A DNA stretch of 42,176 nucleotides from Chiloscyllium plagiosum (lineage: Eukaryota), in the NCBI RefSeq assembly GCF_004010195.1, contig NC_057753.1, positions 2,676,881 to 2,719,056 on the forward strand, given 5' to 3'. The translations under genes and the position numbers were made by a program. The notes under the pieces are model-generated. The model was not told the origin of the DNA. It saw nothing but the letters and a program-made list of their open reading frames with translations, and ran no database searches. Position 1 is the first letter of the stretch, and each line of letters begins with the position of its first letter. Positions 1-42,176 of the stretch are shown piece after piece.

Positions 1-902
1 ATAATGTGCTTACCTCGGGTGGGAACGTTTGGAATCAAATTCCCACTCAGGACAACGTGACAACGGAAATAGGATCAAACATATCCACTGAGACTGATAA
101 AGAAGATTTCGTCATTATCTCGGTTTCTATAACAATATTATTCTATTGTTAATATGTCTCAATTATTAATTCATCGTGTTTCTTCTCTGTAGTTGTCAAT
201 ACAACAACAAATCTACAATTACACACTGAACAATTTGAAAACGCATCCACATCTGAAGTGAATAACAGAACAGGACGTAATTTGCTCATTGATAACAATA
301 AGTGAATTTCAGTGTGACGACGGAACTAATTTACACAGCGATAAGGTTTTCTTTAATTCATCCACGATAACACAGTCAATAGCAGAATAGAATACAATTG
401 ACGACATGATAACATGATGTGCATTCACTGCAGGAACAGGGCCAGTTGCACATGACAACTGCCTTTACCTTGTAAGGTGAAAGCACTAACCGGGAGGCAT
501 CATCTAATTAGAATATCGAAATTGCATGTGTTGCCAGAGACAGAATAATGCCAAACATCATTTCTTGGGAGAAAATGAAGAAGCCTTATGGTTTAGAATT
601 TGAAATAAACACGATAACGTGGAGAAGATACCGATTGCGTGATGCTGATAATGCCGAAATTTTTTGGAAAGGATAGAAGTGGAAGAGATCATATGGTTGC
701 AATCGCAAAGTAACGCACAGTTGATAAAAAAACAATTATCACCGTTCAACGAAATCGAGTATCCTAGTGACAGGGAAATGAGAAGATATTAAATCCGGGA
801 AAGAGTAACTGAAAAGTGGAAAAAAACAATTCGAATGCAATATATCTATCACTGCCGCGTCCCCATTGTTCATGCAGTTGCTAACAAGGTACAGCAACTT
901 AC

Positions 903-972
903 CTGGAACTCCGATTACTCCAATGATGGGATAGTAAATGGCAAACAGCAAACCTTTTGGTGCGTCGTGCAT
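903..972 (-). CDS. Exon 1 of a second, near-identical GPR139-like copy; exon 2 would lie beyond the left window edge
   Basis: Exact reverse complement of 17831-17900 with the GT donor at 902-901. It may be a paralog or an uncollapsed allele. Confidence 0.75.
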
Positions 973-1369
973 TTCTTTCTGATCCTGTGTACTCGTTCAG
1001 AATTTCAGTGTAAAATTGTTATATTTATGTCTCATTCCATGCTCCGGGGATTTCGTTAGTTCATTCAGTTTTATTAAAGTCCTTGTAATGAGCAGATCTG
1101 CGCAGCTGTTGCTCAGGTGGTGTTAATGCATTGTTGAATGAAATATTTACCTTTGTGATATTTCTAACGCGATATATACTGAGACCCAATAACATTTCTT
1201 GATAGAGACAGTAAATGTCTGGATATTGAGATAATGCTAAAGCTTTGATTTGCACAGTTACCTGCGATGATAAATGAAACTTCCATCGCAAATTCTGCAA
1301 ATTTCTGCTTCTGAACATTATTCAGGACGTGTGACCACAGAGCAAGAGCGATGCAGCTCCAACTCTGTT

Positions 1370-1830
1370 CTCTCCAGAGAAACAAAGGAATTTGAAGCAG
1401 GAACACTTTATTCGACTCTTGCAGACTTCCTTGTTTCTTGACTCCCTGGTCATCGAGAACATCCTTTCCATGTTGACCCTGTCTACTCCTGCTAAATATT
1501 CATAGATTTTTTCTGAGATTCCCACTTAATTTTCTTAGCTGCAGCATATTCAGCTCTAACTGATCGACTCTCTCTTTCTGTGACAGTCCTATCATCACAG
1601 GATTCATTCTGGCAAACAATCGTTCCGTTTGCTCCATTACCAAAATATCCTGTGGTCTCACTCAGGCCCGATGCAAAAGCCAAAAGACACTTGTGTTCTG
1701 TCCTTCCATGATGAAGTTGTTCTAGTCCAACAGTTTGATGATAACCTGCTGCTATGTTCTTTTTAATTTTGTCCACCCCAGTCCAACACAGATATGGCCA
1801 CATCATTGTATCAATTATGAATGCCAAAAT
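1370..1830 (-). mobile_element. Old CR1 LINE 3' ORF2 fragment (mirror at ~16970-17435 +; paralog at 40095-40560)
   Basis: The mirror ORF 17143 reads RQDILEMAQMERMFARMNPVMIGLSQKERLDQLEL..GVDRVNMERMF..ESRNK, a degenerate CR1 ORF2 C-terminus. Confidence 0.7.
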
Positions 1831-2819
1831 ATCATCTGCCGTACTTCACCGCCATTACACAATAGTAACAAACACCATTATCACCGCTATTTCCTGTTTC
1901 AAATTTGTGAAATTATTTTCTGCTGTATTCTTATCAAATTTTTAATTTCAGTCTTTAGGCTTCTGGAAGCAGTCAGAAGAAAATGATTATTCAATCATTA
2001 TCAGCACTTTTTAAAAGGATAAATGCAAATATATTTAAACAATTTTTAATCTGAAACCATTCATGTGGAAACACAATCGAATTTTCTCTGTTTGTTTGAT
2101 CCTTGGAGAAAATGTTTTAAGTTTCTATGATTTTTTTTTGCTCTCTTGACATTTTCGGATTCCAATTGCATAAACATTTTATTCCAAGTCCAGTTGAACA
2201 CTCAATCATCAGCCATTTTCCATAAAGTTTGCTTTTCCTGTTTGCCGCTCAAAAATATATCTCGCAATTGTATGGGTAGTATCATAACATTTGAGTGTCG
2301 TTCATGGAGACAACAGTTGAAAATAACCAAAAGGTGTTATGTCAAGGTATTGGTACTGCATATGTTATCTACCTCAGTGGTTGAGTATGTTTGATTTAGA
2401 GATCAAAAGATTTACAAATACCAATAACTACATGGAAGCCAAACCAAGTTAGGATGGTAAAGGACATTAATGAGCCCACAAAGACAGTCACCCGAGGCTG
2501 GAATCGAACCTGGGATCCTGGTGTTGTGAGGCTGCACTGCCTCAACCTGTCCAACCTGCAAACGTTACTTGGATTTAAGTAACGATTCGCTGTCATCTCG
2601 AGACACTTAATTTCTGTATTATATTGAATTCAATTTCCATTATCTGCCATGGCATATTCGAACAGGAGACCTCACCCTTGAACTAATAGTGCAGCATTAC
2701 CAGCGTTATGCCATCGCCTCCGCTCGCGCATCGATGCGGATCAACAACCGATTATGCAGCAGGAACAGGCTTAGCAGCCTGAAGTGACTTATGGCACCGT
2801 GGCTACCTTTTTGGCACTG

Positions 2820-3440
2820 TTCCTTAACGTAGCCAGGAGCATTGGTTCGGAGTCAGACCTCATGTAGATTCTGATCATACAACATTTAGAGCATTGTGAG
2901 CAATTTTGGCGCCAGACCTCAGGAAGGATGTACTGACCCTGAGCGTCCAGTAGATGTTCACAAAGAGTATCCCACGAATGGAAGGCTTAACATATAAGGA
3001 ACGTTCGTGGAGTCAGGGAGTACACTCGATGGAGTCTAGAAGGATGAAGAGGAGTCTAATTGATACTTGCAGAATACTGACTGGCCTGGACAGAGCGGTC
3101 CGTGGGAGGAGGGTTCCATTGGTAGGAGAGAGGAGGACCCAAGGGCACTCCATTAGATTAAAAGTAAGACCCTTAAGAATGCAGATAAGGCGAATCTTCT
3201 TCAGTGCGGGAGTGGTAAATCTATAAAATTCATTGCCACAGAAAGCTGTGGAGCCAATCTCCTTGAGCATAAACTAAACAGGGATAGATATGATCTTGAT
3301 TGCGAAAGGCAACGGAGGTGAAGTGAAAAAAAAACATGAAAATGGGTTTAAAAATCCTATCAATCTTAATCGAATGGTGGAGCAGACTCGATGGACTGAG
3401 TGGTCTAATTTCTGCTTCTACGTCTTACACTCCTATGGAA
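2820..3440 (+). mobile_element. CR1 LINE 3' fragment (mirror at ~15357-15960 -)
   Basis: ORF 2954 reads FTKSIPRMEGLTYKER..RRMKRSLIDTCRIL.GLDR..RTQGHS..RRIFFS..VVNL, followed by a CR1-type 3' UTR. Confidence 0.85.
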
Positions 3441-3445
3441 TCGTC

Positions 3446-3680
3446 CCTTGGGCGACTGTCTGTGTGGAGTTTGCACATTATATCCGTGTCTGCGTGGTTA
3501 CCTTGCGGCCCTCTGGTTTTCCTCCCACAGCCCAAATATGTGCAGGCAAGGTGGATTGGCCATGGGAAATGCAAGAAAACGATTGTGGTTGTGTCTGGGT
3601 GCGATGCTGGTCGGTGGTTTGTTTTGGACTCGATTGTCTGAATGATCGACTTTCACAGCAGAATTTTAAGTGTGATTAGC
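3446..3680 (+). mobile_element. 5'-truncated HE1/V-SINE-type SINE (mirror at 15117-15350 -; paralog at 41510-41730)
   Basis: V-domain-like core ggcgactgtctgtgtggagtttgcac...ggttttcctcccacag...gtgcagg..ggtggattggccatg. Confidence 0.75.
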
Positions 3681-4229
3681 TTCTCATCAATATTTCATTC
3701 ATGCAAACGAATTTTCAAAAATATACGCTGTCACGTGACAGCACAACCCCCTTGCGGCAACAAACAACGGCAATTTTACTTTGATAGAATGCCTTGTTCA
3801 TCTTCAGGCTGTCCAAAGTGAGTCAAAGAAACAGTTGGAGGCACTGGACAATGAAAATCCTGAGTAACGCTGACAAGATTACGGTAATTATTATGAAGAT
3901 TTGTGCTCCAGAATTGTCTCACTCTTCGCCAAGTTATTGTTTAAGCACAACACAGACATATCCACGATAATTTGGCAATTTACCCAGATATGCCCAGCGC
4001 TCTAAAAGCAGGCCAAATAACATTTGACCAATTACCATCCCATAGTCAGTCTGTTGTGTCACCATAGTATTAGAAGACCGTAGAGGCTGCTGTCTCATGA
4101 GAGAGATAAGAGACTGGTAGTGATTTAACATGAAGGCCACCAGAACTCACGCAAGCGAGGAAGTTGAGAAGAACAGCACTTCATATTAACCTCAAACTGG
4201 AGATGGGAATTGAACCCGTGCTGTTGGCA

Positions 4230-4729: not shown

Positions 4730-5421
4730 TCAGTTATGTAGAGTGAGGTTATAGTGTCCAGTGAAGAGTGGAGAAGTTGTAGTAGGAGTACTCGGCAAAC
4801 TCTCAGCTCCAACAATTTTTCCTTACTAATGATACGGCTGGTTCACGGGTAGGAATGTTGTCTCCTCTGCTTGAAACGCCAGTGGAAACTCAGGCAACTG
4901 AACTATTGCAGTAAGTGTAAGCTGGGACGTTTCCTGACTGTGTGGTAACAAGGTCACAAAGTGACCAGTTGAAATAGCAGAAATCAGAAAGCACAAATAA
5001 GAAAGTTGAAGTGGAATTAGTAGAGACTCTGTTTGATCAAGTGGTTGAGACAAACTAGGAGAAGATTGATGACAAAGTGGACATCTTTAGTGCAGAGAAA
5101 TTAACTGTGTTACAGCAGAAATATGAAAACCTAACGCAATTCTTTCAAAAAGCAGACACAGAGAAAGAATCTGGATGTATTCCTGAGGACTACTACCTTA
5201 CAACTGATGCATTAATGAGGAAATGGTGATGATCATATATTCAGGCAGATGTGAAATGGGCAGATGTTCATAAAGTCCTATTACAAGTGAGTTAAAGAAA
5301 TGAGTTGTTTCGGGTTCACATGAATTAAAACTCGGAGTTCATTTACAGTTAAAAAAACTCAAACTAAAACATTTTTAAAAACTGGCATGGACTACATAAG
5401 GACATAGTTGAATTTTGCCAG

Positions 5422-6039
5422 TGTCACAAAACTAGTCCTTTCTTTTGTAAAACCTGTTCCTTGGCTCTAGGATATTCCGTCCTTGGTTTTATTTTAGAGG
5501 GGCTTTAAACCGGGCCGAGCTTCAATCAATCTGGTTTGGTAGAGAGTTGAAAAAGATTTTGAGAGGCCTTTTGTCTATTTGTAAACAGATGAGACGTCAG
5601 GCCAAAGTGGTCGTGTTTTCGAAGTGATCTTTATAAAGAGAAGGGAGTGGTCAGCTCTCTAGCTGAGCTGAGCATTTTTAGTCCAGTCTTGAATTGGTTG
5701 GAAGTTCAACAGGGAGCTGTGTGAAAACTCTCTCTCTCTCTTTCTGTATTCCATTTGTACTGGTTTTTAAAGTGAGTTTGTTTATTGGGACTGTTGTGTG
5801 TATTTGGAAGAGCATCATTAGCTCCAGTTGGATAGTTGAGTTCTGCAAGGGTTCTTTATTCTTTGTGTTTAATTATGTTATTTTGAGAATAATGTTTTGT
5901 CTGTTTCAAAATCGAGTAGTCAACCTCCCTAACTTAATGCGGGTAATATTCTCTGTACACTTATCAAAACAAATTGCAAAGTTATGTTCTGAGCTGCCGG
6001 CTTCAGGACATTTTGAGTGGTCTGCCTTCGTCCATAACA
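5422..6039 (+). mobile_element. Solo LTR (618 bp) inserted in the integrase zinc finger of the Gypsy element
   Basis: TGTCAC...ATAACA termini with flanking 4-mers CCAG (5418-5421) and CTAG (6040-6043). Removing the insert restores DIVEFCQ-TCHTCQ. Confidence 0.8.
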
Positions 6040-6650
6040 CTAGACATGTCATACATGTCAGCCAGTTAGAAAATCATAGACAGTAATAAAACTCGCACCT
6101 TTAATACCTATTTATGCATTTGTGAAAGCTTTTATAAGAGTCTTAGTTGATTGCATGGAAATCTACCTAAAATGAAAAGTGAGAAACAGTATTTGTCAAT
6201 AATAATGGATGCGTCCCGAGTCCATTTCGTTATGCAATATCATAGTATTAAAGGTTGTGGACGAGTTAGTCAAATCTTTGACGAGGTATGGACTTTCCAC
6301 AGAGATGAAATCGGATCAAGCAACTAACTTTGCATTAAAAGTATTCAATGAAATTATGGACAACTGTGAAATAAAACAATTCAAATCTACTGCATATCTT
6401 CCAGAATCGCAGCCGGGTCTAGAAAAGTGGCATCGGACACTGATGACCGTATTGGCAGCTTAGAGTCAAGACTATTCAGATAATTGGATAAAAGAAGTCC
6501 GTTTGCACTTTCTGCCATCAGAGATGCCCCAAATGAATCGACTAAATTCAATTAATTCGAATTCGTTTTTGGGCATGAAGTGGGAGGACCGTTAAAATTG
6601 ATTAAGGAGAAATCGGTAAGTAATAATTCGGAAATCAGATATTTGAGATT

Positions 6651-6800
6651 AGTAAAAGGTAAAAGCCAGGTTCTAGATTAGAGTGGTGCTGGAAATGCAG
6701 AGCAATTCAGGCAGCATCCGAGGAGCAGTAAAATCGACGTTTCGGGCAAAAGCCCTTCATCCGGAATACAGACAGAGTGCCTGAAGGGTGGAGAGATAAT
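6651..6800 (-). mobile_element. Short non-autonomous element of the hammerhead-bearing fold-back family (one arm), inserted in the Gypsy integrase
   Basis: gagtggtgctggaaa..caggcagcatccgaggagcag.aaaatcgacgtttcgggcaaaagcccttcatc is homologous to the arms at 26886, 28705 and 40379. Confidence 0.75.
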
Positions 6801-9589
6801 TTAAGCTTCGTGTCAGAGTTTAGGGGACAGTTCAATAAAGCCAGCGAGTTGGCTTGACATTATGTAAAACGTATTAAAACATATGATGAGACGGGAAACA
6901 GACAAGAAATAAAAAAAACTCTCAATTTTGCTATCAGAGGCAAAGTGGTAGCGTTACTTCTAGTGGTCGTTGAACCTTGAAAACCAAGGTTTAGTGGACC
7001 GTATCAAGTCGAAAGGAGGTTGAGTGAATGAACTAATTGACATGGATTCCAGATAAAAAGAAATCTCACAGTGTGTCATGCGAATATGCTCAAATGGCAT
7101 TTTAACAGGCAAGGAAATTCAAATGACACTTGGTAATTGGTTACAACACAGAGGGAAGAACCAAGTTCTGAATTGGACTGTCCTCAAATTAAATTGGATA
7201 ATGAGGAAGTTGTGCAAAATTGGGATAAATTACTGAGGTACCTTCCAGAGGAAAATCGAAACGACCTGAAAGAATTAGTGCTATCGCATGGGGAGATATG
7301 TGGAAATAAGATGGAATGTATTAATTTAATTATGCATGGTGTAAATACAGGAGATGAGGGTTCCAATTAAGCAACATCCATAGAGGCATAACCCTCTAAA
7401 GTTGGTACAGGTTCAAAAGGACATTGAGCGCATGCCCCAAGACAACATCATTGAAGTGAGTTACAGTGACTGGAGCTCACTCACAGCAATGATGCCAAAA
7501 CCAGGTGGCCCCCAACGGTTATGTGTGGACTATCGCAAAGTGCATGCAGTTCAAACGACTCATGCATGTCCGCTTTAACGTTTGGAAGATGGTCTTCAAC
7601 AGGTGGGACAAGGAACTTATATTTGAAAGTTGAACTGGCTGAGAGGATAATGTCAAGTATCTTTCTCCGAAAGAGTGAAGACTATTTCGAATTTTGTAAC
7701 GACCAATGGAGTGTATCAATTTAAAGTCATGCCATTTGGTATGAAAAATGTGCCAACCACATTTCAAATACTTACCAATAAACTCTTTTTCGGATTGCTA
7801 AGTTCTATAGTTTATATTGGTCATCTGATAATTTTTAGGAAGGAACATTTGCAACGTTTGTCAGACTTGTTCAATCGGTTTGGGAGGCAGGGCTGGTGAT
7901 CAATCTGGCTAAGGGTGAATTTCCCAAAACCCAAGTCACCTTCCTGAGCCATGTTATTGGAAATGGACAAATGACCCCATGAAACGCAAAAGTAAAGGTT
8001 ATTAGGGAGTTTCCCATCCCATCGACAAAAAGAGCAGTACTACGATTCCTGTAATTACGTGAATTTTATCAAAACTACGTACCAAGTTTTACCAGTGTGT
8101 CTGCTCCACTCACTGAACTTATAATGAAAGACAAGAAGCTGAAGTGGACAGCGGACTGTCAGAAGTTTCCTGAAAGCTGTGTTAACCAGTTGTCATGGAG
8201 CCTGTGAGATTAGTGTCATTTGACAACATTTTAACGTTTATGTTAGCAGTCGTATATCTGAGACAACCACATACACTGATCATAACCCATTGACGTTTGT
8301 GGAGAAATTTAAGTGCAAAGCTTCCAGATTATTTAGATGGAGCGTTTTGTCACAACCATTCAATTTGAAAATTGTGTATGTGACAGGACGAGCAAACGTG
8401 ATTGCTGAATGATACGAGTCTTGACTGATCCATAATACCAGTTAAGAATCATTTTCTGAAGCTTGGAATATTTCTCTGAACTGTAGCAGCTTCTACACAC
8501 ATCTAAATCAGCAGCTTCTCACAATTGCAACGAAAATGAAGCGGAAAAAAATACATGAACTGAGTGAATGGGCCACTCGTCTGACATTGATGACGAAAGG
8601 ACACATTCGGTAGCAGCAGTAAACGGACTGCAGTAGAATGTAGCAGTGCATGTTTGCATGCTGATAGTCAATGTAATGTATATATGTATATATGTGTTGT
8701 CGCATACTAATAGGTTAAGATGTTTGAAAATGAAGCCACCTTTGGATATTGGTGGTTCATTCTTTTCAACGGGTTAGATGTGAGGATGTTGCTCCTTTAA
8801 CAAAGTTAAGTTGTCTTTGTAATTTTTTGGAGGTATGGTTAGGGCAGAGGTTCTAATATGTTTGGAAGTATTTTTAAAAATCTTTAAAATCTTTCTTTTA
8901 AAACACTTGTACAATGAAAGGGGAGTTAACAGTTCTCCCATGTCAAGGTTTAGTTCTGTTTGGTTTTAGCAAACAGTCAGTTTTTGATGCTGTTGATCAA
9001 AGAAACAGCTCTAAAATGATGTTTGTTCATATTGCACAATAACCAAACAAATCTATGCAAGTATCACTCACATTCAGCTGGGCGCCACGAAAGCTTTAGG
9101 CAGTTATTTTGTTCTCTGTTACGCACTCATAGAGTCATAAAGTCATAGACGTTTACAGCACAGAAACAGACCCATCGGTCAAACTCGTCAGTACCACATC
9201 AATTCCTTAGGTCCAGCCTTGCACAGTCGATTTTTTTTTTTTGACATCTTGAAAGTCAAATTGTACTCATTTCTGAGCTTAAAGGTTCAAAGTGAAACTT
9301 TAGTGCAATTATGCCATTCTTGGGCCAATGTTTGTGATCGAGACTCAATGTGTTTTATTATTTCAATCAGGAAACGGTTCAAGTTTGTTTCGAAAAAAGA
9401 TGCATAAAGTGTGGTGCATAAATGGAATGAGTTGCCACAATACGTGGTGCAATGGACAAAAATTGCAAAATTTAAAACGCATTTGAACAGTAACATGGAT
9501 AGGAAACATGTCGAGGGCAATTGGAGGCAAATGGATGAGCCTAGTTTTGGAAACCTGGCCAGCACGGATGAGTTCAGCCATGGTGAAAG

Positions 9590-10395
9590 CAAATTCCACA
9601 GATTCATAACCCTTTGGGAGATGTAGTTTCTCCTCAACTCTCTTTTAACTTTGCTACCCATTACCCTAAGACTATGACCTCTCATGCCACAATGCCCAAC
9701 AAGATGAACCATCCGCTCCACACCAATTTCATCCATAGCTTTTCCCATCTTGAATGTTTCAATTTGATCTCCACTCATTTTTTTTTCTAAATTCCACATA
9801 GTAGAGCCAAACATTGTACATTGTTTCTTCATATGACAACCCACCTCCACCCCCCATCGCTGCGTTCAATCTAGTGAACCACCTCTGAACGATCTCCAAG
9901 ACTACTAGAGCCTTTGGGGACGTCACGGTGACTCAGTGGTTAGCACTACGGCCTGACAGCACGAGAGATCCAGGCTCGGTTCCAACCTCGGGCGACTGTC
10001 TGTGTGGAATTTGCCCGTTCTCCCACGTATCTGCGTGGGTTTCATCTGGGTGCTCCGTTTTCCCCCCAAAATCTGAAGACGTGCAGGTTAGGTGAATTGG
10101 CCATGCCAAATTTCCCACGGTGTTGAGGAATGTGTAGGTGAGGTGTATAAGTCAAGGATAAATATAGGATAATAGGGATAGTGGAATGGGTCTGGATGGG
10201 TTCGTCTTCGGAGTGTCGGAGTGGACTTGTTGACCTGAAGGGCCTGTTTCCATGCTGTAGGGATTCTATGATTCAGAATCAGATCTTTCCTCAAATACGG
10301 GGTCAAAACTGTGCACAATACTCCAGGTGCAATCTCACCAATATCTTGTATAGTTGCAACAATACTTTCTTACTTCATATTATATTCCTTTAGAA
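9590..10395 (-). mobile_element. CR1 LINE 3' fragment interrupted by a SINE
   Basis: ORF 9287 (-) reads GDQIETFKM..MRGHSLRVMG..ELRRNYISQRVMNLWN. The element resumes after the SINE with an LVRLHLEYCAQF-like sequence at 10290-10390. Confidence 0.8.
9916..10274 (+). mobile_element. Full-length tRNA-derived HE1/V-SINE-type SINE
   Basis: A box tgactcagtgg, B box ggttccaacc, V-domain core, and a CR1-like tail gggcctgtttccatgctgtagggattctatgattc. Confidence 0.88.
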
Positions 10396-10539
10396 TTATC
10401 AATTTGGGAGTGCCGTGCTGTGCAGCATTATAACCACACAAGCGACAGGCAATGATCATCTACAAAGAAAATTAAATCTAACCACTTCCAGTTGTCACTC
10501 AATTGAATTACCATTGCTGAATGCGCTATTATCAGCTAG

Positions 10540-11110
10540 ATGGAGATTATCATGGACGAATACGTTAAATGGTAAGTCATAGTGTGGCAATTATGTGAAG
10601 TGTATTTCATCGCTTGAATTACAAACGTCTTCCAGCATTTAAAAGACATCAATGAGGAGTGGGACAGACTGCCCTCTACTTTCTTGGGTGGATGCAACTC
10701 TAACAATATTCCAAAGGCTTTAATTTTCAGAACAAGACAGCCCACGTGATGGGAAACCCATCCAATACTGTCACATAGTGACAGCAATCAGAATTATTTA
10801 TAATACACACTGTACTAACTCACTAGGTTCCTTCCATAGTAACTTCCAAACCATTAACCCCAACACTTAGATGGATAGAGCAGAGAATTTACTGGAAGAT
10901 TTACCATCACACACAAGCTCGCCTCCAAGACATGCACAATCCTTATTTCAAACCATGACAGCATTTCTATTCAGTAGCTACATCAAAATCTTGATACCCC
11001 TTCGTTAAGGCTCTGTCGAGTTACATCTATCCCTAGACTATAGAGCTTCAAATCATTCTCAAGGAATAATGGGGATCGAGAATAGATATAAGGTCAACCA
11101 GCGAATATCA
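10540..11110 (+). mobile_element. Highly decayed LINE 3' end (CR1/L2 group)
   Basis: Degenerate RT C-terminal and 3' UTR-like sequence (ttgggtggatgcaactctaacaatatt..caagacagcccacgtgatgggaaac). Confidence 0.45.
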
Positions 11111-11660
11111 CCTTGCCATGAAGGAATGCAATAGCGAATTATAGGTGACAGGAAGAAGGTATCGAGAACTGATTGAAAAGCATATTAGTCATAATCTAAT
11201 TGTGGAGCAGACTGAATAGCTGAATTGTCTAATTCTATTCCTATATCCTATGATCTTATAGTCTAATAATTAGTAGAGCCTTTACAGGTAAACGGATGGA
11301 ATGCCTTCCTCCATATGACAAGATTCTTTGAATCTACTTGACTCGGCAAAAAAATAACTCTGCACACTTTAATCGAAGTGCAGAATCCTAGTATTCAGCA
11401 CTCCGTCCACATCACAACTTATATGAAAATGATCTGACGAATTTGATGGAAAGATTGACTTGGATATTATCAGAAATTGAAGTTTATTGTAAAATGCAAT
11501 AAGTTAGTGCCACACTGCGTCATTTTAAGCATTTCACCTATGTGCAGTTTAGTGAATTTGCCCTCTAAGTTCTGTCTAGTCGGCTCACGACAAAGCATTC
11601 TATTTTATTCTATTCTATTTTTGCCTGTGAAATTCAAAACAATATTGCAACGATGATGCA

Positions 11661-12432
11661 TTCTGTTGATCTGTTGGCCAAGCTAGTAGGTTTGTTGGCA
11701 GCTGTTTCGTCCCCTTCCTAAGTGACATCATCAGTGCAGTTCACTCTCAAATTATGTGATTCTGTTTGACCTGTTTCCGGTTGGTGCCGGTTCTGGTATT
11801 TTCCATTGCAGTGATCTGTATATGGGGTCCAGGGAGATGTGTTTGTTGATGGATGAGTACCATGCTTCCAGGAATGCCATTGCTTTTCTTTGTTTAAATT
11901 ATTCTAGTATTGTTGCGTTCTCTCAGTCAAGCTCTTGGTTCGTTTTGGCCGCTTGTATGAATACCAGGGAGACTTTGTCGTGTCGCTTAGTTGCTAATTG
12001 GTGCTCATGGATGCGTTTCACTAGCTGTCTGCATCTTTGTCTTACATAGTGCTTAGTCACTGTGTGGTATTTTGTAAAGTACGTATGTCCCGCACATAGT
12101 GGGAATCCGTACAGGGACAGGCTAAACAAAGAACAGCATACGAATTCTTGGAAGCATGGTACTCATCTTTGGACTGCATCAACGAATACATTGAGCTCGA
12201 CCCTACAGACAAACCTCTGCAATGGAAAAAAAAACAAAACTGACGCCAACCAGCAACAGCACAACCAGAATAGCATAAAACAGCAAAGGCGCGTTTCACA
12301 GTTGGAAACACAGTACTGATTATGTCACCTGGACAGGGGAGGAAACTTCTGTCAACACAGCCACCAGCTCGGCGAAAAGACCAACAACGAATTCAATCAG
12401 CTCCTGAGCTACATAATTTCACAAACACTTGA
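11661..12432. mobile_element. Old Penelope-like element with inverted (tail-out) arms
   Basis: The minus strand reads TKHYVRQRCRQLVKRIHEHQLATKRHDKVSLV (GIY-YIG region); the plus arm is 12100-12430. It is homologous to the element at 22200-23285 and absent from the paralogous site at ~39100-39150. Confidence 0.82.
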
Positions 12433-12894
12433 ATTCGAGATGCTGTTTGTCCTCCACATGAACAGTCAAAATAGGGTATCCGATTCGGATAGTCGCTGCT
12501 TTCTGCACTTTCATTCCCACTTCTTGATGCTAAAAGGTTCTCAAGACCAGGTCAATCGTTAAGAAAATTCTGACACTAAAAGTTTACATGTTATTTATTC
12601 TCAAGTCCTCAACAAGTGAAGACATCGTACCTGCAGCTGCTTTGTCAATAATTTTCTGTTAAATATGGGTTTCTCTTATCACACTTCTCATTCCTCACTA
12701 TTTAAGAGAACAGAAGTCCCGACTGACCAATCTCAATTCAAAGAACTCTCCTGCAAATCATGCAAATGAGTCGAGTGAAACTTTATTTCACTACTTCTAT
12801 GGATGCAATATCCTTTTCGTGATAAGGAAAGCAATACTATGCAAAGTATTCCAGGTGTGTACTAAACAATATTTTCTTGAAGCTAAATATTCTT

Positions 12895-13120: not shown

Positions 13121-13621
13121 ATCGGAAGCAGTAGTTTACTACTACAAAATTTCCTAAATGTAAAAGTAAATACCGATGAGAATTCCAAAGATTATTCAGG
13201 CTCTGAAAGAAATTTCTCTTCATCTGAATCTTAAGTACACATCGTTTATTTCTCCAGAGAGTATTTGTCATAGTTCTAGAGTCATAGTTACAGCGATGTA
13301 CAGCACAGAAACAGACCCTTCCATTCAGCTCATCCATACCGACAAGATATCCGAAATTAAATCAGAATGAAACATGAGGTAGAAGAGGGTGTGCTGCAAT
13401 GTACAATAATTTTCACGGTCAATTATTCTATTTTCATATTTAATTATTTTTATAGAGGTTCAGTGGATATTTTGTTTCACCATGGACGCTAGGACAAATA
13501 CAGAGATTGCTGCAGAAATTTAATTACTGAAAAATACATCCGATTTCTTGAATGATAAATGCAGAATTGCTGAAATTGAAACCTTAAATCGAAGTAACGT
13601 TTGCAGGTTGGACAGGGTGAG

Positions 13622-13913
13622 GCAGTGCAGCCTCACAGCACCAGGATCCCAGGTTCAATTCCCGCCTCAGGTGACTGTCTGTGTGGAGTATGCACATTCT
13701 CCCTGTGTCTCCCTGGGTTTCCTCCCAGTGCTCAGGTTTCCTCCCACAGTCCAAAAATGTGCAGGTCAGGTGAATTGGCCATGCTAAATTGCCCATTGTG
13801 TTATGTGTATTAGTCAGAGGGAAATGGGTCTGGATGAGTTGCTCTTCGGAGGGTCGGTGTGGACTGGTCGGGCTGAAGGGCCTGTTGCCACACTGTAGGG
13901 AATCTAATCTAAT
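13622..13913 (+). mobile_element. HE1/V-SINE-type SINE with replaced 5' end
   Basis: B box ggttcaattccc, V-domain core, and tail gggcctgttgccacactgtagggaatctaatctaat. Confidence 0.88.
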
Positions 13914-14369
13914 AACAATTATAAAAGGATGAAACTACCTGAAGGTTGTGAAGAGTAAATCAATTAACCTTCTCCCCTCCACTATCTCTCGGTCTGTCTC
14001 ATTTTATTCCATTCCTCTAAGACCAGAGTCGCCTGCCACATCTCTGGTCGCCTCAGTATGCTTGACAGTAAGAGCATTCAGCAGTAAAATCAGAATATGT
14101 AGGAGTACAGGTGTTAAAATAAATGTAAACCAGTTATGGCATATGTTCGTGATGTAGAAGCAATGACTTTTATGCTGTAGAACCGGAAATCTTTTTAATT
14201 ATGTACGAAGCTTCCTGTTGCAAATAAAACACAACATTTTTGCACAGGTCAGGGTGAAGATGAGTCCTCCTATAATTCATGCTCCCATCTTCGCAGTGCA
14301 ATGCCGCCTTAGTGTAAAGGGCTGTCATTCTGATTTCACCTCTGGAATTCTGCTCTTTTCTCCATGATT

Positions 14370-25857: not shown

Positions 25858-25985
25858 CTGGTGCATTCTTGATTCCAAAGGACACCATTTTGAATTGCAA
25901 CTCCACGGTACCCTAATTTACCTGGTGCATTCTTGATTCCAAAGGACACCATTTTGAATTGCAACTCCTCAGTACCCTGATTTAC
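25858..25985. repeat. 64-bp tandem duplication (2 copies, 3 mismatches)
   Basis: ctggtgcattcttgattccaaaggacaccattttgaattgcaactcc... occurs at 25858 and 25922. Confidence 0.95.
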
Positions 25986-28704: not shown

Positions 28705-28870
28705 CGTTTAGAGTAGTGCTGGAAGAGCACAGCCGGTCAGGCAGCATCCGAGGAGCAGGATAAAAAGCGTCCTGCTTCTCGGATGCGACTTGACCTGCTG
28801 TTCTTTTTTTTCAGCACCATTTTAATCTTGACTCTAATCTCCAGCATCTGCAGTCCTCACTTTCGCCAAA
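28705..28870 (+). mobile_element. Fold-back element with deleted centre, inserted in the Gypsy 5' LTR
   Basis: TSD gtgcttgta (28696-28704 and 28871-28879); arms gcatccgaggagcagga and tcctgcttctcggatgc; family tail ctccagcatctgcagtcctcacttt. Confidence 0.85.
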
Positions 28871-29351
28871 GTGCTTGTAAGCCGTCAGTTCAGAACAGAT
28901 TTCTCTGTCTCTTAAAAGTACAGTACTTGCTTTCAACTACATATCATGGTGGAGAGATACAATTGGATGTGGGGCCATATCGCGCTTCTACTGTGGTAAT
29001 ATGTACTGAATAATGGATCAGGACACAATTTTGAAGTATTTGGCATGAAAGGATAATTTTTCATCACCGGTAATGGTGTAACTCACTGCTTTGGCCTTTT
29101 CTCAATATCCACAAAGTTATTGTTTACATCAAGAAATATTAGTGTGAAGGCTTTGAATCACAGCGTATTTCACTTCAGAAATATCACGAAGGTAAATAAT
29201 TCATCCAACAAAACATAAACACAATCTGAACAACAGCTACACAGATCTGTTTTTTTGCAAGGACTTCAATAAAACTTAATAAACTAATGAGCTTTCGGGA
29301 ACCTGGAATGAGTCATTAAGATTCTTAACGAGCTCACAATAACTGAGAGGA

Positions 29352-32231
29352 ATGAATGAAGTAGTAAAAGCTGTGATGTTTGCCATTTACTGTCCCGTCA
29401 TTGCAGCAATCGGAGTTTCTGGTAAATTACCTAGACACTGACTACACAACTGATGGGTAATCAGCAGCGAATGAGATGTTTCAGTAGAACCACTTCTCCA
29501 CTTTTTAGGTACTCTCTCTCCGATTTAATGTCTTCTCATTTCCCCTCCATCACTGTACTGAATTTCATTTAACTGTGATAATTGTTTTTCTCCACACTTG
29601 CATTATTCAGTATTTCAAACTCTCCTACTTTTTTCATTTTTGACAAAACATGAGATTGCATGGAATTTCACCACGTTATTATGTTTATTTCAAAACCTTG
29701 AGTATAACGTTTCTTCACAAATCCCCTATAATTTGATGTTTAGCTTTATTGTGTCTCCCGACACATTTACAACTTCGTTGTTATAATTACATGATTCCTC
29801 GAGTTTCGTGATTACATCTTACCAGGTAAATGTAGTCCTCATATGCAATTGGCCCAGTTTCTGCAGTGGATTGGGATAATGTTATCATGAAGTTAATTCT
29901 GTTCTATTCTGCTATTGACCTTGTTCATGTGGGTGAATTAACGATGCCTTGTTGTGTAAATTAGTTCTGTCGTCACACTGAAATTCACACGTTATTTTCA
30001 TAATGTTATTCTGTTCTGTTCTTCGGGTGAATTGCCATATTGTTTACAGTGTGCAATTCTAGTTTTTTGTGATATTGAAAACTACAGAGAAGTGACACGA
30101 TGAATGATAATTGAGATTTGTTAATGGAAAAACATATATGACTGAATTTAATTATGAAAAATATTAAGGAGACAGTAGAAAACACCAAGATAATGACCAA
30201 GTCTTTTTATGCATCTGTCTGGAATATTTGATCACATTTCCATGGCTTCATTCTCTGAGACAGAACTTGAATCTCAGTGTTTGCAACTGAAGTAATAAAT
30301 TCCCACTGCAAGAAAATCATGAAATGTCTTCTGCATAAACATCGTTGTTGTGACATTTTTATGGATTACTGGTATGTGTCATTTTCTTTTGTTCTCAGCC
30401 TCTGCAACACTGGGTCCTTCAGCATGTTTATCCTTCACAACATTCGCTGCAGATGATGACTCTTTCATGGCTGATTTCCTTTCTTTTCATGTTTTCCCCT
30501 ACACAGAAATGCTCAGACACCATCTTCACTATGTTCTCCACACTGAGTAACATTCCATCGATTGCACTAACTCTCAAAGGCATAGTGCACAGATCCTTGC
30601 TTCAAATGTCCACTCACCAATGAAATTATTTGATAATCCATCCAATACTGCTCGAGTATTGAGCTACAATATGGCTTCTTACTGTCTGCGCCTTGCTTTC
30701 TTTTTTTGCAGTCCATCCAATCGATATCTACAAAACCAAATTTGTTACTTGGTGTTTGGTCTCACATTTATAACTGAGATCGACCGAATATGTCCCTTTC
30801 AAATGGAAGATAAAACTGTTGTGATTTTGCATTCATCTTGATCTGAAAAAAACGTTGCACATCTTACTTGCTGTCCAACAATGAATAGTTTTATAATAGC
30901 TTATTGAATGCAGTCAATTTGAACATACAGTGTAACATACTCAGTGCCCATGTTGCTTTAATTGCTTATTGTCGGTTGCTTTACATTTTTTGTATATTTT
31001 CGACAACTATCTGTAATGCTACCGAGTCAGTTGTGTCTTAAATGTTAGAAGACACGAAAATAGTTTGCATTATATTGACATTGACTTCGTGTACTTTGTC
31101 ATCTGGAAGCCATAATAAATTGGATGTATACCATTGACTGGTTTTAAGTGTAATTTACATTTGAGTTTTGCGTCATGAAACTTTCAAACTTACAATTCCA
31201 TTGAAGAGAAGGGTGAATTCTTTTCAGAGTAAAATCTGCAACATTCATTTTCTTTTTTTCACTCTCTTTGTGCCTATTACAGGTAGCTAAACAGTTATTA
31301 TGATCGTGACTCGATGCAAGTGCGGTATCTCCAGATGTATTGATTATTACCTAGTGACAATGGCAGTATCAGAAATACAGGTCATAGTGACAGCTGTCAT
31401 ATTAAATCGCATTGCTGGAATTTATTTCCCATCGTTTTTTTTCTCTCAAACACACTAGCGTGCAGTGTGTGCTCTGCTTTCAATTACGGATTTATTGATA
31501 GCTTTGCTTGGTTAACAGACAGTTTCACAATTGATCAATTTGTATCCATTTCTTGTCTGACGTTCAAAATAACATTGCATCAGGAGGACGGCAATGCGCG
31601 TTGGAGGAATTGTGACCACATTAAGTTGCATACAAATATATTTGTATATTTTACATATGAAACGAACCAAGTAGTACAAAATATACATTGGTTCTGCAAA
31701 CTAAAAGATATATCTTTCACGTCACTTGCATGGGCTGCATATGATTGGATTTGTTCAATTTTAATCACTTGTCTCCCATTCATTATGATCTTACTGCTCA
31801 ACGCTCAGACCTGCCACATATGTTCTAGTGGCTAAGAGAGCCTGCACGAGACTGCAGACTCAGAGGATGGGAACGAATCCGCGCGATGCAGAGATGGAGA
31901 AGGGGAGGAAGTCAGTCGTTTGCCCTTTGCCTCTTCAGGCAATTTCAATCTGTTCAATGTATTGTACGTTATAACAATTGCACGCATTGGGAATCTTAGT
32001 TGTGCATCCGGTTCTGACTTTAATAATCTCTCTTTTGTGCTCAGTGAAAATGCATTTATGTTTCAGTTTTTGAGTTTCTGCATCAACACATTTATTTATG
32101 CTGGAACCTACGATAAATTCAGAGCTCAGTTAAATAATTTGGTAGAATATCCCTGGAAGCTTTTCTACAAAATTTCAAGATTTCAAAGTTGGAAAAAGGG
32201 AGAGAGCGAAGTTTTATTGTCAATACACTAA
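29352..32231 (+). pseudogene. GPR139-like pseudogene (gene B): exon 1 29352..29421, exon 2 from 31283
   Basis: Exon 1 encodes MNEVVKAVMFAIYCPVIAAIGVS followed by a GTAAAT donor; the acceptor TTACAG ends at 31282. Lesions: in-frame TAA at 31288-31290, frameshifts near 31440, 31575 and 31810, DRF changed to DQF, NPFIY changed to NTFIY. Fragments appear as ORFs 31467 and 31920. Confidence 0.9.
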
Positions 32232-33949
32232 TAAACCAGAGCATCAGACCAACAGTGTCAGCAAATCTTGTGAAATTCTTCAATGAAACATGCCGTTGAC
32301 ATTTAAATTCAAACTAATAAATCTGGAATATAATGCGAGTTGGAATAATAGTGACATCCAAGCTCTCATCCAGTCCCAGGTTCATTCACCGAGGGACTCT
32401 ACAGATGGAAGTCTGCAACGTTGACTTGATTCTGTCTACGTGAGACCCCAATTCATCTGAATTACGCTTGGCTACGAACTGTCCTCTGAAATAGTCTGGA
32501 ATACAATTCAGTTTAAGGGCCCCTGAGGTCAGGAAATGAGTCTTGCATTTGTAAGGAATGCCCATGGCAGGAAATGATTGTCGGAAAAAAAGGATACATT
32601 ATATTCCAACAGCTCCTTTTCTTAACCATGTGCCGCCTCGAGAAATGTATCCGAAAGACCAGTTAACCAATTGAAGCCTGACCAGCTGGGATTTGTGTTA
32701 AATTGATCTTCAATGTGTTCTAAAAATCTCAATTAATTAATTGTCAATTCTACAACCTTTCATTATGAGGGAGCCGTTGTCGTCAATTTGAAAAGAAAAT
32801 CCTTTCAAAAGGTATCAGGGTTCTTGTGGCGCGGGTTCAATTCCTGCCTGCTCCTGAGTTTTCCAGTAACATAATCATAGTGATAGATCTGCACCTCCAC
32901 CTCTAAAGGATCCAGTGCCACTTATGCCACAGTTGCACAGTAAGATTTCTAAAGAAATTGATGGGGAAATTACATTGACCAGGACTGCTTGTCTTCTGTC
33001 AGCAAAGTGCTATGTAACATATTTTGATTAAACTTTCTCATATTTAGCTTTATTGCCATTTAAGTTGCTACTACCCTGCCAAAACAAAGCATTACAGTGA
33101 GTGAAAATAATTTGTCAATTTAACACATCTGAAAATGAAATTATGCAAAATCAAACGGAGGGCCCACACCAGGAATCGTATTTATTAACCTAAATCTTTT
33201 GGCTTTATAAAATGCTAAGCTGTACATCCGATGATTAGGGATCCAAGGGGCGATGTTAGGTTTTTTTTTCTCACTAAATAGAGGCAAAAACTGTTAGATA
33301 AAGGTGAATGTGGGTTGTTTGAGAAGAGATACTCAACGTCCATCACTGCAACGATGGACGTTGCTGAGATAATAGGATTTGAACAACAATAGAACATTCC
33401 GCCATGTTTACGATCATGAGTGAAATGTGGCATGACTGCATATGCCTGTCCCGAGGCCATAACTCTTGCTTACAGCAAAAAATATCTCAGATTCAAAAGT
33501 AACGATAGATCTAACATTAACTACCTTTTGTGGAAAAGAGTTTCAAACATCTGTCGCCCTCTGTGCATTGAAGTGCTTCTGAGCATCTCTCCTGACTGAT
33601 TGGACAGAATTCTTAGACTATTTATTCCCCAGCTCCTGAATCTCCAAACAATGGAAATAGTTAATGTTTACCTTTGCTGTCTTTTTCCTGTTAATATATT
33701 TTCAACTTCCGTGAGATCACCCCTTGACTTCGAAATTCAAAAGAATTCATCTGGAGAGCCCGTGTTGTTTGTTGGAAGCTTGGTAATGTTGTTGGGCTTT
33801 CTTGTTCATAAATCTAAGTTTACCAAATAAGCTCGATGTAACATAGTTTTTACTCGCAGCATTTACTTTCAAATTGCATAAAATCTTTATTGGTGTCTCG
33901 TCGTTATTTGTATCCATTTTGTTGTCTATATGTGGATTGGTGTTGATTG

Positions 33950-37316: not shown

Positions 37317-37456
37317 TATGTTACCAAGACTAGTTGACCTGATTTACAAGGAAAGGTTGGTCAAGATGGGACTTTATTTCTTGGAACTTAGGAGAATGAG
37401 GGGTTACCTCATTGATTTGTAGAGACTCATGAGGGTCATAGATATCATGAATGCAT
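37317..37456 (+). repeat. 140-bp local direct duplication of 35577..35716
   Basis: 8 mismatches in 140 nt with no indels. Confidence 0.93.
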
Positions 37457-38325: not shown

Positions 38326-38459
38326 TGAAAGCAAATACTTTTTTATAAAGAACATTTACTTGTGATATTTAATGCACTGCTAAAGAGCATTATAACATTC
38401 AAAAGCGAATAGACAACCAGCCTGGTATTTTCCTCTGAAACCAAAGTTTTCCTTTATCA

Positions 38460-39594
38460 GTAATGATGTTTGTTCTTATTGCACAATAATCAGACCAAAC
38501 TATCCAGGCATCACCCACATTCTGCTGTATGCCACTAACGCTTCAAACAGTTATTCTGTCATATGTTACACACTTCAGGTAGCGTCATCATCTTATTCAC
38601 ATCGATTCCTTATGTCGAGCCTTGCATATTTTTTTCACTTTTGGCAGGTCAAATTGAACTCAGTTCTGACCTTAAAGTTTAAAAGTAAACCTTTATTTCA
38701 AATCATCCATTCTCAGGCCAATGGTGTTGACGGATTTTTTTTTATCTAATTTTAATCAGGAAACAATTTTGGTTAGTTTCGAAAGTGTGGTGCATAACTG
38801 GAACGAGCTGCCATGAAATGAGGCTTCCTAATATTCAACACTTAGGTCACATCGTAACATCCTTTTTGCAAAAAAAAAAGAAAATTGCATGGCAATGAAC
38901 TGAGGAATTTCCTGGAAATTTCTGATGTAGATATTATCATAAAATGAAACGTTTACAGTAGAACGCAATAAGTTGGAACCACACTATATCACTTCAAGTC
39001 TTTCACAGGAATGCAGTTTGATGCGATTTGTCATCCATATTCCGTTCATTCTCATCACTGCAAAGCATTCAAGTTTATCATTGACTGAGAAATTCAAAAA
39101 GATTGCATTCGATAACACTTGCATAAAGTTATGTTAATATCATTCAGAGAAACTGTTTTGTCCTCCACATGAACAGTCAAAATAGAACAAAAGCATATCC
39201 GATTCAGATAGCCACTGCATTCTGCACTTTCATTCTCATTTCTTGATGTCAAAATATTCCCAAGAGCAGGTCACGCATTAGGAATATTCTAACATTCAAA
39301 ATGTTTAAAAATCATCTATTTTTCAATTCATCAAATTGCGAAAAACACTTAACTGCATCTGACTTGTCAATCCTTTTTACGTAAAATATGGGTTTCTCTT
39401 ATGACACTACAGGAGAGAACAAATGTTCTGGTTGACCAATACCAATTCACAGAACTATCCTGACATCACGGAAGCAAGAATCTTTATTTCGCTCTTTCTT
39501 TGGGTGTAATCTCCATTCTGTGGTAAGGAGAGTGATACTGTGCAAAGTACTCGACGTATGACCTGAACAATGTTTTGTTGAGACTAACCTTAGA
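38460..39594 (+). repeat. Diverged paralog of the gene A upstream spacer 9017-12890 (same orientation, lacking several insertions)
   Basis: Colinear blocks: 38465-38820 with 9017-9430, 38890-39110 with 11430-11660, and 39145-39594 with 12435-12890. Confidence 0.85.
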
Positions 39595-40094
39595 NNNNNN
39601 NNNNNNNNNNNNNNNNNNNNNNNNNNNNNNNNNNNNNNNNNNNNNNNNNNNNNNNNNNNNNNNNNNNNNNNNNNNNNNNNNNNNNNNNNNNNNNNNNNNN
39701 NNNNNNNNNNNNNNNNNNNNNNNNNNNNNNNNNNNNNNNNNNNNNNNNNNNNNNNNNNNNNNNNNNNNNNNNNNNNNNNNNNNNNNNNNNNNNNNNNNNN
39801 NNNNNNNNNNNNNNNNNNNNNNNNNNNNNNNNNNNNNNNNNNNNNNNNNNNNNNNNNNNNNNNNNNNNNNNNNNNNNNNNNNNNNNNNNNNNNNNNNNNN
39901 NNNNNNNNNNNNNNNNNNNNNNNNNNNNNNNNNNNNNNNNNNNNNNNNNNNNNNNNNNNNNNNNNNNNNNNNNNNNNNNNNNNNNNNNNNNNNNNNNNNN
40001 NNNNNNNNNNNNNNNNNNNNNNNNNNNNNNNNNNNNNNNNNNNNNNNNNNNNNNNNNNNNNNNNNNNNNNNNNNNNNNNNNNNNNNNNNNNNNN
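39595..40094. other. Assembly gap (500 N)
   Basis: Run of exactly 500 N. Confidence 1.
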
Positions 40095-42176
40095 CAGTCT
40101 CTGTTTTTGACACAGGCCTGCCATCCTAGGAATCATTCTGGCAAATAATCATTGCGTTCTCTCCTCAGTCAAAAGATTCACTGGTCTCACTCAGGCCCTA
40201 TTCAAAAACTGAAAGAAATCCCTGCTCTTGTATTCTACCCTTAAATTAATAAGTTCAAAATCACCCAACATACGGTTCTAGTTCAACAGTTTGACGATAA
40301 CCTGCTGTTGTGAGTTTTTAAATTTTGTCCCCCTAAGTCCAACACCGGCATCGCGACATCATTGTATCCATTATGTACTGAAAATGTGTTGCTGGAAAAG
40401 CAACAGGAAGGGCTCATGCCCGAAACGTCGATTCTCCTGCTCCTTGGATGCTGCCTGACCTGCTGCGCTTTTCCAGCAACACATTTTCAGCTCTGATCTC
40501 CAGCATCTGCAGTCCTCACTTTCCCCTATCCATTATGTACGCCAAGATGTAATCTGCATTCTTCACAGTCAATACACAGTAGTAACAAACGTCATAATAA
40601 CTTCCTTTCTGCTTCAAATTCGTGAAATTATTTTCTGCTGGATTATTTTCAAATTTCTAAACTTCAGTCTTTCGGCTTCGAGAAACAGTCAGAAGACAAC
40701 GATTATTCAATCATTAACAATACCATTTTAAGATAAATGCAAACTATATTAAAACAATTTTTAATCTGAAGCCATTCATTCAGAAGCACAACCGAATTTC
40801 CTCGGCAGTTTGATCCTCAGAAAATTTGGTTTAAGTTCCTATGATCATTGTTTTGTTGTCTTGCCAATTTCAGTTTCCAATTTCAGAAGCATTATATTCC
40901 AAATCCAGTTGAACATTCAAACATCAGCCATTTTCGATAAAGTTTACTGCTCCTGTTTATTGCCTGAAAATCTATCTCACAATTGCATGAGTAGTCTCCT
41001 ATTATTTGTGTGTAGTTCTTGGATGCAACAGTTTGATATCGCCAAAGGTCTTATGTCATGTCATTGCCAAAGCATATGCTATCTACATCTGTTGTTGTGC
41101 ATGTTTGAATTAGAGATCTACGGTTTTCCAGATAGCTACAAATACATAGAATTCAAACTAAGTTAGGATGCCAGCTTACTTCTGTAAAGAACATTAATGA
41201 GTCCGATGGTTTTCCCCCGACAATCGACAATTGATTCACGGTCATCTTGAGACTCTTAATTTCGGGTTTTTATTTAATTCAATTTCTGCCATCTCCCTTG
41301 GCAGGTTCCAACATGGGGTATTACCCTGGTTCTTATATTGCAGCGAGAACAGCATTATGCAATCGCCCCCGTTAGCGCATTGATGTGTATAAGCAGCTGA
41401 TCATTCGGCAGAAATAGGCTTGGCAGCCTGAATCGACTTGTGGAACGGTGGCTACTTTGTTTACACTACATTAGAGTAAAAGGAAGAAACTTAAGAACGG
41501 AGATAAGGATAAACTGTCTGTGCGCAGTTTGTACATTCTCCCTGCTTCAGCGGGGGTTTGCTCCAGGTCCTGCGCTTTTCTCCAACAGTCCAAGTATTTT
41601 AAGTTTAGGTGGACAGTCCATGGGGAATGCCGGGAAACGGTTGGGGTTGTGCCTGGTGAGATATTTTTCGTGGGATCTGTTTGGACTCGCCTGTCCGAAT
41701 GACATGTTTTCACAGCAGGATTTTAACTTTGATTTGTTTCTCAGCAATATTTCATTCATGCAAGCGAATTTTCAACAAGAGACTGTCACGTGACAGTTCA
41801 AGACGATTACGTAAGCAAACAATGTAAGATTTATTTTGATATAAACTCTTATTCACCTTCAGATTGTCCAAAATTCATGCAAAAGAAACAATTAGAGATA
41901 CTGTACACGGCAAAGCCTTTGGACTCTGTCAGCATTATGGTAATTGTAATGAAGGTCTGTGCTCCAGAATTTGTTGTACTCTTCGCCAAACTATTGTTTA
42001 AGCCACAATACTGTCATCTCCCGACAATTTGAGAAATCAACCAGATATGCCCAGTGCACAAAAATCAGGAGAAGTCCACCATGACCAATTACCGCCCATT
42101 CAGTCGACTCTCCATCGCCACGAATGGAATGTTTAATCAACAGTGCTAGAAAAGAGCTGTTAAGGTTTTATCTGCT
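40095..42176 (+). repeat. Diverged paralog of ~1565-4055 (inverted relative to the gene A upstream region 14450-17240)
   Basis: Colinear matches, for example 40600-41200 with 1890-2475, 41240-41460 with 2585-2815, and 41510-42105 with 3450-4050. Confidence 0.88.
40379..40526 (+). mobile_element. Fold-back element, partly deleted, with 14-bp TSD
   Basis: TSD tatccattatgtac (40365-40378 and 40527-40540). The empty paralogous site is at ~1809-1822. Confidence 0.9.

Follow-up and report, generated by a model that had tools for sequence, protein, structure and literature searches.

Introduction

The chemoreceptor repertoires of sharks are held to be very small. Those of the catshark comprise 2 canonical OR and 6 OR-like members, 3 ORA, 3 TAAR, 2 TARL, and 32 canonical V2R (PMC11979771), and a "relative paucity" of GPCRs (G-protein-coupled receptors) has been described in cartilaginous fishes (PMC8455134). 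The present work concerns a window, meaning the whole stretch of 42,176 nucleotides that was analyzed (Chiloscyllium plagiosum, contig NC_057753.1, positions 2,676,881 to 2,719,056 of the forward strand; coordinates below are those of the window), which holds one intact receptor gene, here called gene 1, together with parts of related units. The original prediction, made from the letters alone, had seen in it a tandem birth-and-death array of two-exon, GPR139-like receptors forming a lineage-specific and possibly chemosensory repertoire.

GPR139 and GPR142 (human GPR139, PDB 7vug and 9m42) are the best characterized relatives of the wider clade, and share with the family of gene 1 the class A fold and a short N-terminus. 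GPR139 has been described as highly conserved across vertebrates (PMC12208981), and its residues F109, H187, W241, and N271 were found by mutagenesis to be required for activation by L-Trp and L-Phe (PMC5430874). The shark family differs from it in having dozens of clustered paralogues per genome and a variable pocket. The invertebrate relatives of GPR139 and GPR142 include FMRFamide-type receptors (PMC8514136), a type that is expanded in a snail (PMC11589774). Nematode srw (PMC3963977) and the FMRFamide-like receptors of Lymnaea (PMC11589774) are likewise large expansions from the class A peptide-receptor side, and Srw clusters occur among the ESM Atlas look-alikes of the shark family at 0.95; the shark expansion is independent of both and lies inside a gnathostome clade.

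In the way it behaves in the genome, with clusters, pseudogenes, a variable pocket and a conserved inner face, the family resembles OR, TAAR, V1R/ORA, and V2R/OlfC receptors. Gene 1 nevertheless belongs to none of the OR, TAAR, V1R, or V2R families: only Pfam 7tm_1 scored above its cut-off, there are two coding exons, and no class C ectodomain is present. Position 3.32 is occupied by N90 and not by the aminergic Asp.

Results

Gene 1 Is a Class A Receptor

Gene 1 consists of two coding exons on the forward strand. The first (17831-17900, 70 nt) encodes the N-terminus and the start of the first transmembrane helix (TM1) and ends at a phase-1 GT donor; it is followed by a GT-AG intron placed by translation (17901-19803) and by a second exon (19804-20714) whose open frame runs from the rest of TM1 to the stop codon and matches Pfam 7tm_1 (E = 1.6e-20). 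The spliced coding sequence of 981 nt translates into 326 residues without internal stops, as had been predicted for an intact two-exon gene. Annotated relatives corroborate the splice: their N-terminal peptide is the same, and in 72 of the 74 that are full-length it places 24 residues ahead of N1.50, as in gene 1.

Gene 1 is a class A (rhodopsin-like) GPCR. Its second exon carries the motifs D2.50, C3.25, DRF, P5.50, and NPxxY, and its 7tm_1 score was 74 bits against a cut-off of 30.5. The predicted structure of a relative 79% identical to it (P0001) reached a predicted local distance difference test score (pLDDT) of 89.5 and matched class A receptors; a prediction that left out TM1 was of low quality (pLDDT 54.8) and was set aside, the P0001 model being used instead. 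Among solved folds, those closest to this model belonged to peptide and chemoattractant receptors with nearly equal scores, GPR139 ranking second, in a search that cannot tell peptide receptors apart. Family members have a very short N-terminus, and none of the 74 full-length ones carries a glycosylation sequon in it.

The Family Is Expanded in Cartilaginous Fishes

The family to which gene 1 belongs is multiplied many times in sharks and also occurs in rays and chimaeras. Homologue searches were made with exon 2 as the query (302 of the 326 residues), and the protein search returned 761 protein clusters at E <= 1e-3. Among the best 120 of these, 119 came from 12 shark species, with identities of 60-81%, the closest (79-81%) being from Chiloscyllium and Hemiscyllium. 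The horn shark, Heterodontus francisci, contributed 69 of the best 120 matches; these clusters were 68-96% identical (median 77%), and a single 59.5-Mb sequence carried 51 of them, while sequences of 62.8 and 83.8 Mb carried 9 and 8, respectively, and the last one lay elsewhere. In the whale shark, 12 of the 16 matches within the best 120 were found on one 11.7-Mb sequence. In the whale-shark model P0103 a family member is joined to C2H2 zinc fingers, which hints at zinc-finger genes near the clusters.

A 30-sequence profile run against 1.84 billion sequences gave 131 representatives (50% clusters) at E <= 1e-30. The first bony-vertebrate protein was outscored by 97 representatives, and 20 of the 21 looked up were from a shark, skate, ray, or chimaera. 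Both sharks and batoids have full-length members whose motifs are intact, and the median identity of 45% among deep representatives implies that such members have been retained for a long time. In contigs of two of the 20 listed DNA runs (X1 and X5, two samples of the best-matching organism), summed depth over exon 2 was 43-441 and 74-261, respectively, as compared to 9-22 and 13-19 over most of the intron (bins 18096-19712); this excess fits many paralogues and gives no copy number.

Automatic annotation named 103 of the best 120 matches "probable" or "putative G-protein coupled receptor 139", and other members were labeled capa-, TRH-, apelin-, GPR15-, sex-peptide-, FMRFamide-, or vasopressin-receptor-like. 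RefSeq models named "probable G-protein coupled receptor 139" in sharks, skates, rays, and a chimaera (e.g., XP_048419836.1, XP_007902368.1, and XP_078286301.1) belong to this same family.

The Link between the Shark Family and GPR139 Is Indirect

In a mixture-model tree of 41 rows, the 24 chondrichthyan rows, gene 1 included, formed a clade (support 97/93) sister to a group here called lineage B (98/96), with lineage A as the next branch; the root rests on three long-branched outgroup proteins. A quick tree of 91 rows agreed, with supports of 91 and 98. Lineages A and B (e.g., XP_005988539.1 and XP_069092602.1, respectively), whose members are likewise automatically named GPR139, are both 25-35% identical to gene 1, and differ from the shark family in having about one match per species and a conserved pocket.

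The lineage B search gave 25 matches, of which 20 were amphibian rows from 20 species and one was from a sturgeon, the other 4 being chondrichthyan. The pocket of this lineage (P0218, P0410-P0429) is nearly invariant, with R2.61, D5.39, K6.51, K6.55, and R7.35. As the sister group, lineage B offers the best handle on the ancestral ligand of the shark family. Lineage A (P0220, P0296, P0333, P0347, and others) gave about one match per species from sharks to reptiles (best 120 of 164) and covers sharks, bony fishes, amphibians, turtles, and squamates; mammal or bird names were absent from the best 120 listed. Two of its models are called TMEM183A isoforms, which suggests that the lineage A gene adjoins TMEM183A. 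Its pocket is highly conserved (D3.29, Q5.42, R6.51, and Q6.55), and lineage A is an orphan receptor, apparently single-copy, with a likely fixed ligand. Its best match among solved structures was GPR139 (70 bits vs. 44 for the next).

It is hardly credible that gene 1 is the shark orthologue of GPR139 (or of GPR142) accompanied by local duplicates. The automatic name carried by most of the best matches and the second rank of GPR139 in the fold search speak for such an orthology, but human GPR139 scored only 24.6 bits against exon 2 (E = 1.5e-4), ranking 18-19 of 26 and below CCKAR and NMUR2, and was 21% identical to the modeled relative P0001. The family profile scored lineages A and B at 188 and 194 bits, respectively, whereas its best human matches were TRHR (55 bits), PrRPR (51), and GPR139 (50); among solved structures, GPR139 was one of its top five matches. 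The alignment of the family (A1) matched that of bony-vertebrate proteins (A2) with E = 7e-55.

The residues that serve the known ligands of GPR139 are not kept either. In a profile alignment (chain number minus 212 giving the human number), F109, H187, W241, and N271 align with Y91, R181, N249, and I284 of gene 1, with none of the four identical and one conservative. Because these residues are lost, an amino-acid ligand cannot be carried over to the shark family. The original prediction is supported in separating gene 1 from the GPR139 orthologue, and its suggestion of amino-acid sensing by analogy with GPR139 is not supported. "GPR139-related" is a fair name for the family and "GPR139" is not, the link being indirect. 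The Pfam Srw cut-off was passed by lineages C and D and by the outgroup, and no Srw match was found in gene 1, P0001, or the chimaera member. Two more divergent GPR139-named paralogues, P0256 from an anchovy and P0267 from a caecilian, passed this cut-off.

Pocket Positions Evolve Fast among Paralogues and Slowly among Orthologues

In the horn-shark paralogues the pocket evolves about 1.8-2 times faster than the other positions of the outer half of the helices. Two pocket sets of 30 and 17 positions were used, and 26 of the 30 fell in columns used for the rates. With the 69 paralogues, the site rate was 1.63 at these 26 positions against 0.90 at other outer-half positions (p = 1e-4), and 1.87 against 0.94 with the 17 positions (none in 20,000 draws, to four decimals); the inner half was slowest, with a rate of 0.59. 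The 28 deep representatives gave 1.56 and 1.71 for the pocket vs. 1.01 and 1.04 (p = 0.002 and 0.0008). The opposite was obtained in the two controls, in which the pocket was the slower part: 0.44 vs. 0.62 in 118 lineage A proteins (p = 0.04) and 0.32 vs. 0.66 in 23 lineage B proteins (p = 0.005). An entropy test agreed with the site rates, the effect being smaller (ratio 1.32, p = 0.03) when the 16 paralogues of the whale shark were used. This reversal between paralogues and orthologues is the main new evidence of this work, and its pattern is that of a diversified receptor repertoire. Together with the many paralogues and the clade made up of chondrichthyans only, the fast pocket positions bear out the lineage-expanded repertoire that had been proposed.

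The gene 1 subclade has also replaced the toggle Trp at 6.48, by Tyr in 96% of the horn-shark paralogues and by Asn in gene 1, and mostly lacks Pro 6.50 (residues 249-251 in TM6 of gene 1); the Trp is kept in 89% of the deep representatives. Coding DNA of relatives was sought in two metagenome scans, in which none of 67 and 176 pattern matches was confirmed.

The Window Is an Ordinary Piece of a Cluster

Self-comparison of the window showed that the whole unit of gene 1 (17427-21038) matches 28950-32538 at about 70% identity over 3.7 kb, intron and flanks included. The exons of the two units are 78.6-78.8% identical and the introns 71.5%, and the shared block 5' of gene 1 (17427-17830), presumed to be promoter and 5' untranslated region, is 74% identical. 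The second unit is a pseudogene on the forward strand, with exon 1 at 29352-29421, located by translation and alignment, and exon 2 from 31283 to about 32185, whose best protein match was P0001. This second exon has six frameshifting indels (31433, 31573, 31631, 31810, 31918, and 32160), a 6-nt deletion at 31978, and one in-register stop (31288). A third coding unit, missing from the list of the original prediction, is a decayed exon-2 remnant of the TM4 to TM7 region on the minus strand (13446-14306; tblastn E = 6.5e-8 and 2.4e-5, nhmmer E = 7e-28), split by a dispersed repeat at about 13622-13906 and much older.

Two further pairs of non-coding blocks were recovered. Downstream of the minus-strand remnant, three pieces within 9015-12886 are collinear with 38462-39587, a paralogue of this flank, and 40095-42113 (minus strand) is a paralogue, in three pieces and at 71-73%, of the upstream flank of gene 1 (14740-17238). 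E values of the six pieces ranged from 1e-165 to 1e-25, far beyond chance; the downstream flank of gene 1 itself matches 9015-12886 through dispersed repeats only. Between the two blocks lies a 500-N gap (39595-40094). The flank to its left is of the downstream type and that to its right of the upstream type, each in the orientation that a minus-strand gene would have. Because the flanks bracket the gap as they would such a gene, we infer that a further family member on the minus strand may be hidden inside it, an argument that draws on flanks of two different units, downstream for the remnant and upstream for gene 1.

Three coding units are thus seen directly, a fourth is inferred in the gap, and a fifth is doubtful. 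The pseudogene and the two paralogous spacer blocks were as the original prediction had them. The cluster that it described, with at least four units of differing ages, stands as regards the cluster and three of the units, the fourth resting on the gap and the fifth being questionable; its tandem array stands in that whole units were duplicated, but the units are not head-to-tail and both strands are used.

The doubtful unit is an inverted near-copy at the left end (1-4229, minus strand), which is the reverse complement of 14551-18802 at 96.3% identity, a 4.2-kb piece beside a 500-N gap; it contains an exon 1 (972-903) and a portion of the intron. This exon 1 has zero differences from that of gene 1, and of the 108 substitutions between both stretches 104 lie left of 17500 and 4 beyond it, the last 563 bases being identical. 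The contigs of runs X1 and X5 were compared with the window as an allele test; since contigs drop variants, they show presence and not absence. In X1 the inverted-copy type alone was found at four diagnostic indels, and a contig with the 16-base deletion of the inverted copy extends into 14400-14550, the neighborhood of gene 1, as expected of an allele at the same locus. Run X5 showed letters and indels of the inverted copy at 15540-16034, 16280-16640, and 17007-17235 and the gene 1 type at 16917 and 17297 and, without any difference, over 14881-15127, hence both types are present.

The copy is probably a second allele that was placed inverted in the assembly rather than a separate unit. It is possibly a recent paralogue, left by an inverted duplication that reached further and underwent gene conversion close to exon 1, and 3.5% is indeed a large distance for alleles; the X1 contig that runs on into the surroundings of gene 1 points to one locus. 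The third exon 1 noted originally is accordingly present, but probably as an allele and not as a repeat unit, and the collapse of extra units as haplotigs, which had been named as a possible outcome, probably concerns this one unit and not the family. At 18803, the base right after the stretch whose match ends at position 1 of the window, both DNA runs have a letter other than that of the window, so that a contig appears to end, at a variant site, with the first base of the window.

Several repeats lie in the window. An inverted pair (91%, 434 bases) at 22177-23278 belongs to a decayed retroelement, presumably Penelope-like (no Pfam match), inside the remnant of a long interspersed nuclear element starting near 21300, and a self-inverted stretch at 11657-12395 is related to it. 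A 185-base near-palindrome (94%) at 26886-27069 consists of a short repeat in two opposed copies; this repeat recurs at 6683-6767, 28708-28825, and 40407-40529. Two decayed elements bearing reverse transcriptase, by appearance of the long terminal repeat type, occupy about 4730-8450 and 25000-28250 in opposite orientation and are 58-64% alike in two blocks. An Rfam scan of the window gave no match.

Discussion

The window covers part of a birth-and-death cluster. The class A GPCR family in it expanded in cartilaginous fishes, apparently from a low-copy GPR139-related gene. That this family is a diversified receptor repertoire of some kind is very probable. Whole units have duplicated, some have been lost by frameshift, and many intact paralogues have been kept, with a conserved cytoplasmic half and a variable pocket. 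In the mechanism we propose, every paralogue would recognize small molecules or short peptides from outside that differ from those of the others. The ligand would bind in the transmembrane pocket, a site suggested by the very short N-terminus without a glycosylation sequon, and through the conserved inner half all members would act on one shared transducer, possibly Gq, which is a guess from GPR139, reportedly a Gq-coupled receptor. The members might be expressed in scattered sensory cells of the olfactory, oral, gill, skin, or gut epithelium. Because a set of many variable receptors that feed one output is well suited to detecting diverse chemicals from outside, we favor a chemosensory reading: clustered paralogues were found along with pseudogenes, and a diversified pocket along with a conserved transducer face. 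The case for chemical sensors falls just short of evenly balanced.

Several points weigh against this reading. Diversification of the pocket marks any repertoire, immune ones included. The rates compare pocket-facing with other outer-half helix positions at the protein level and are not dN/dS (ratio of nonsynonymous to synonymous rates); the only value of this ratio, 0.54 over 293 codons between gene 1 and the pseudogene, mixes a functional and a dead branch. The pocket sets and Ballesteros-Weinstein positions follow general class A work, the 69 paralogues were chosen as best matches to gene 1, and true GPR139 and GPR142 are absent from both trees. The olfactory organ of the catshark has been described as dominated by V2Rs and its neurons as microvillous (PMC10116579), and a large class A family would find less space in such a nose. 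Single-cell RNA from one sample weighs neither way: X21 gave 58 partial reads (about 2% read), nearly all on dispersed repeats, X22 gave 0 (about 6%), and no spliced read was seen in either.

The main rival is a defence repertoire in leukocytes, mast-like cells, or somatosensory neurons that would detect microbial, parasite, or damage-derived peptides or irritants, for which the rodent clusters of FPR and MRGPR, expanded as well, are the comparison. Clustering, pseudogenes, and a diversified pocket would be expected under it too, the near tie of peptide and chemoattractant receptors among the closest solved folds is in its favor, and MAS1 and related receptors have been reported missing in cartilaginous fishes, a role that could thus be filled (PMC8455134). 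Expression in immune cells is presumed, however, and the nearest characterized relatives are neural or metabolic sensors rather than chemoattractant receptors, as seen in the structure match of lineage A to GPR139, so that we regard this repertoire as somewhat unlikely. Receptors that read endogenous or social peptides (hormones, pheromones, or reproductive peptides) and co-diversified with them would agree with the placement of GPR139 and GPR142 with MIP/sex-peptide, proctolin, and FMRFamide receptors (PMC8514136; PMC12208981) and with TRHR and PrRPR heading the human matches of the family profile. The relatives with an apparent single fixed ligand, lineages A and B, keep their pocket, which makes such a function improbable. 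It also counts against it that we know of no matching expanded peptide family, although no search was made for one.

Expansion may also have been largely non-adaptive, a duplication-prone segment having been amplified into mostly silent or dying copies whose variable pocket reflects relaxed constraint. Two of the three coding units seen in the window are indeed broken, the units carry several retroelement insertions, and the duplications include long non-coding flanks. Relaxation should, however, raise the rates of all outer-half positions, whereas pocket positions evolve about 1.8-2 times as fast as those facing the lipid, with a slow inner half; moreover, the divergent intact members of sharks and batoids imply long retention. 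We consider this explanation quite improbable.

No description of the family was found in the literature searched, most subscription journals lying outside it and most candidate papers being judged by their listing; in the accessible supplements, PMC8455134 gives one GPR142 orthogroup label only and PMC13188829 none. Surveys restricted to known families would miss these receptors, and a misleading automatic name hides them. The finding is a family rather than a locus, catalogued under a wrong automatic name. The at least 69 members of one subclade in one horn-shark genome exceed the V2Rs of the catshark, and the family is larger in this shark than the chemoreceptor families known from the catshark. 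Returning to the chemosensory reading, chondrichthyans may own a large chemoreceptor family, independently co-opted from the GPR139/FMRFamide-receptor branch, unrelated to OR, TAAR, V1R, V2R, T1R, or T2R, outnumbering the V2Rs and used in the nose or other sensory epithelia, a fuller claim that we advance with considerable reserve and that would overturn the notion of a few dozen receptors serving smell in sharks. If the family is immune, it would be the shark counterpart of FPR/MRGPR-type repertoires; if it is sensory, the account of shark smell would change.

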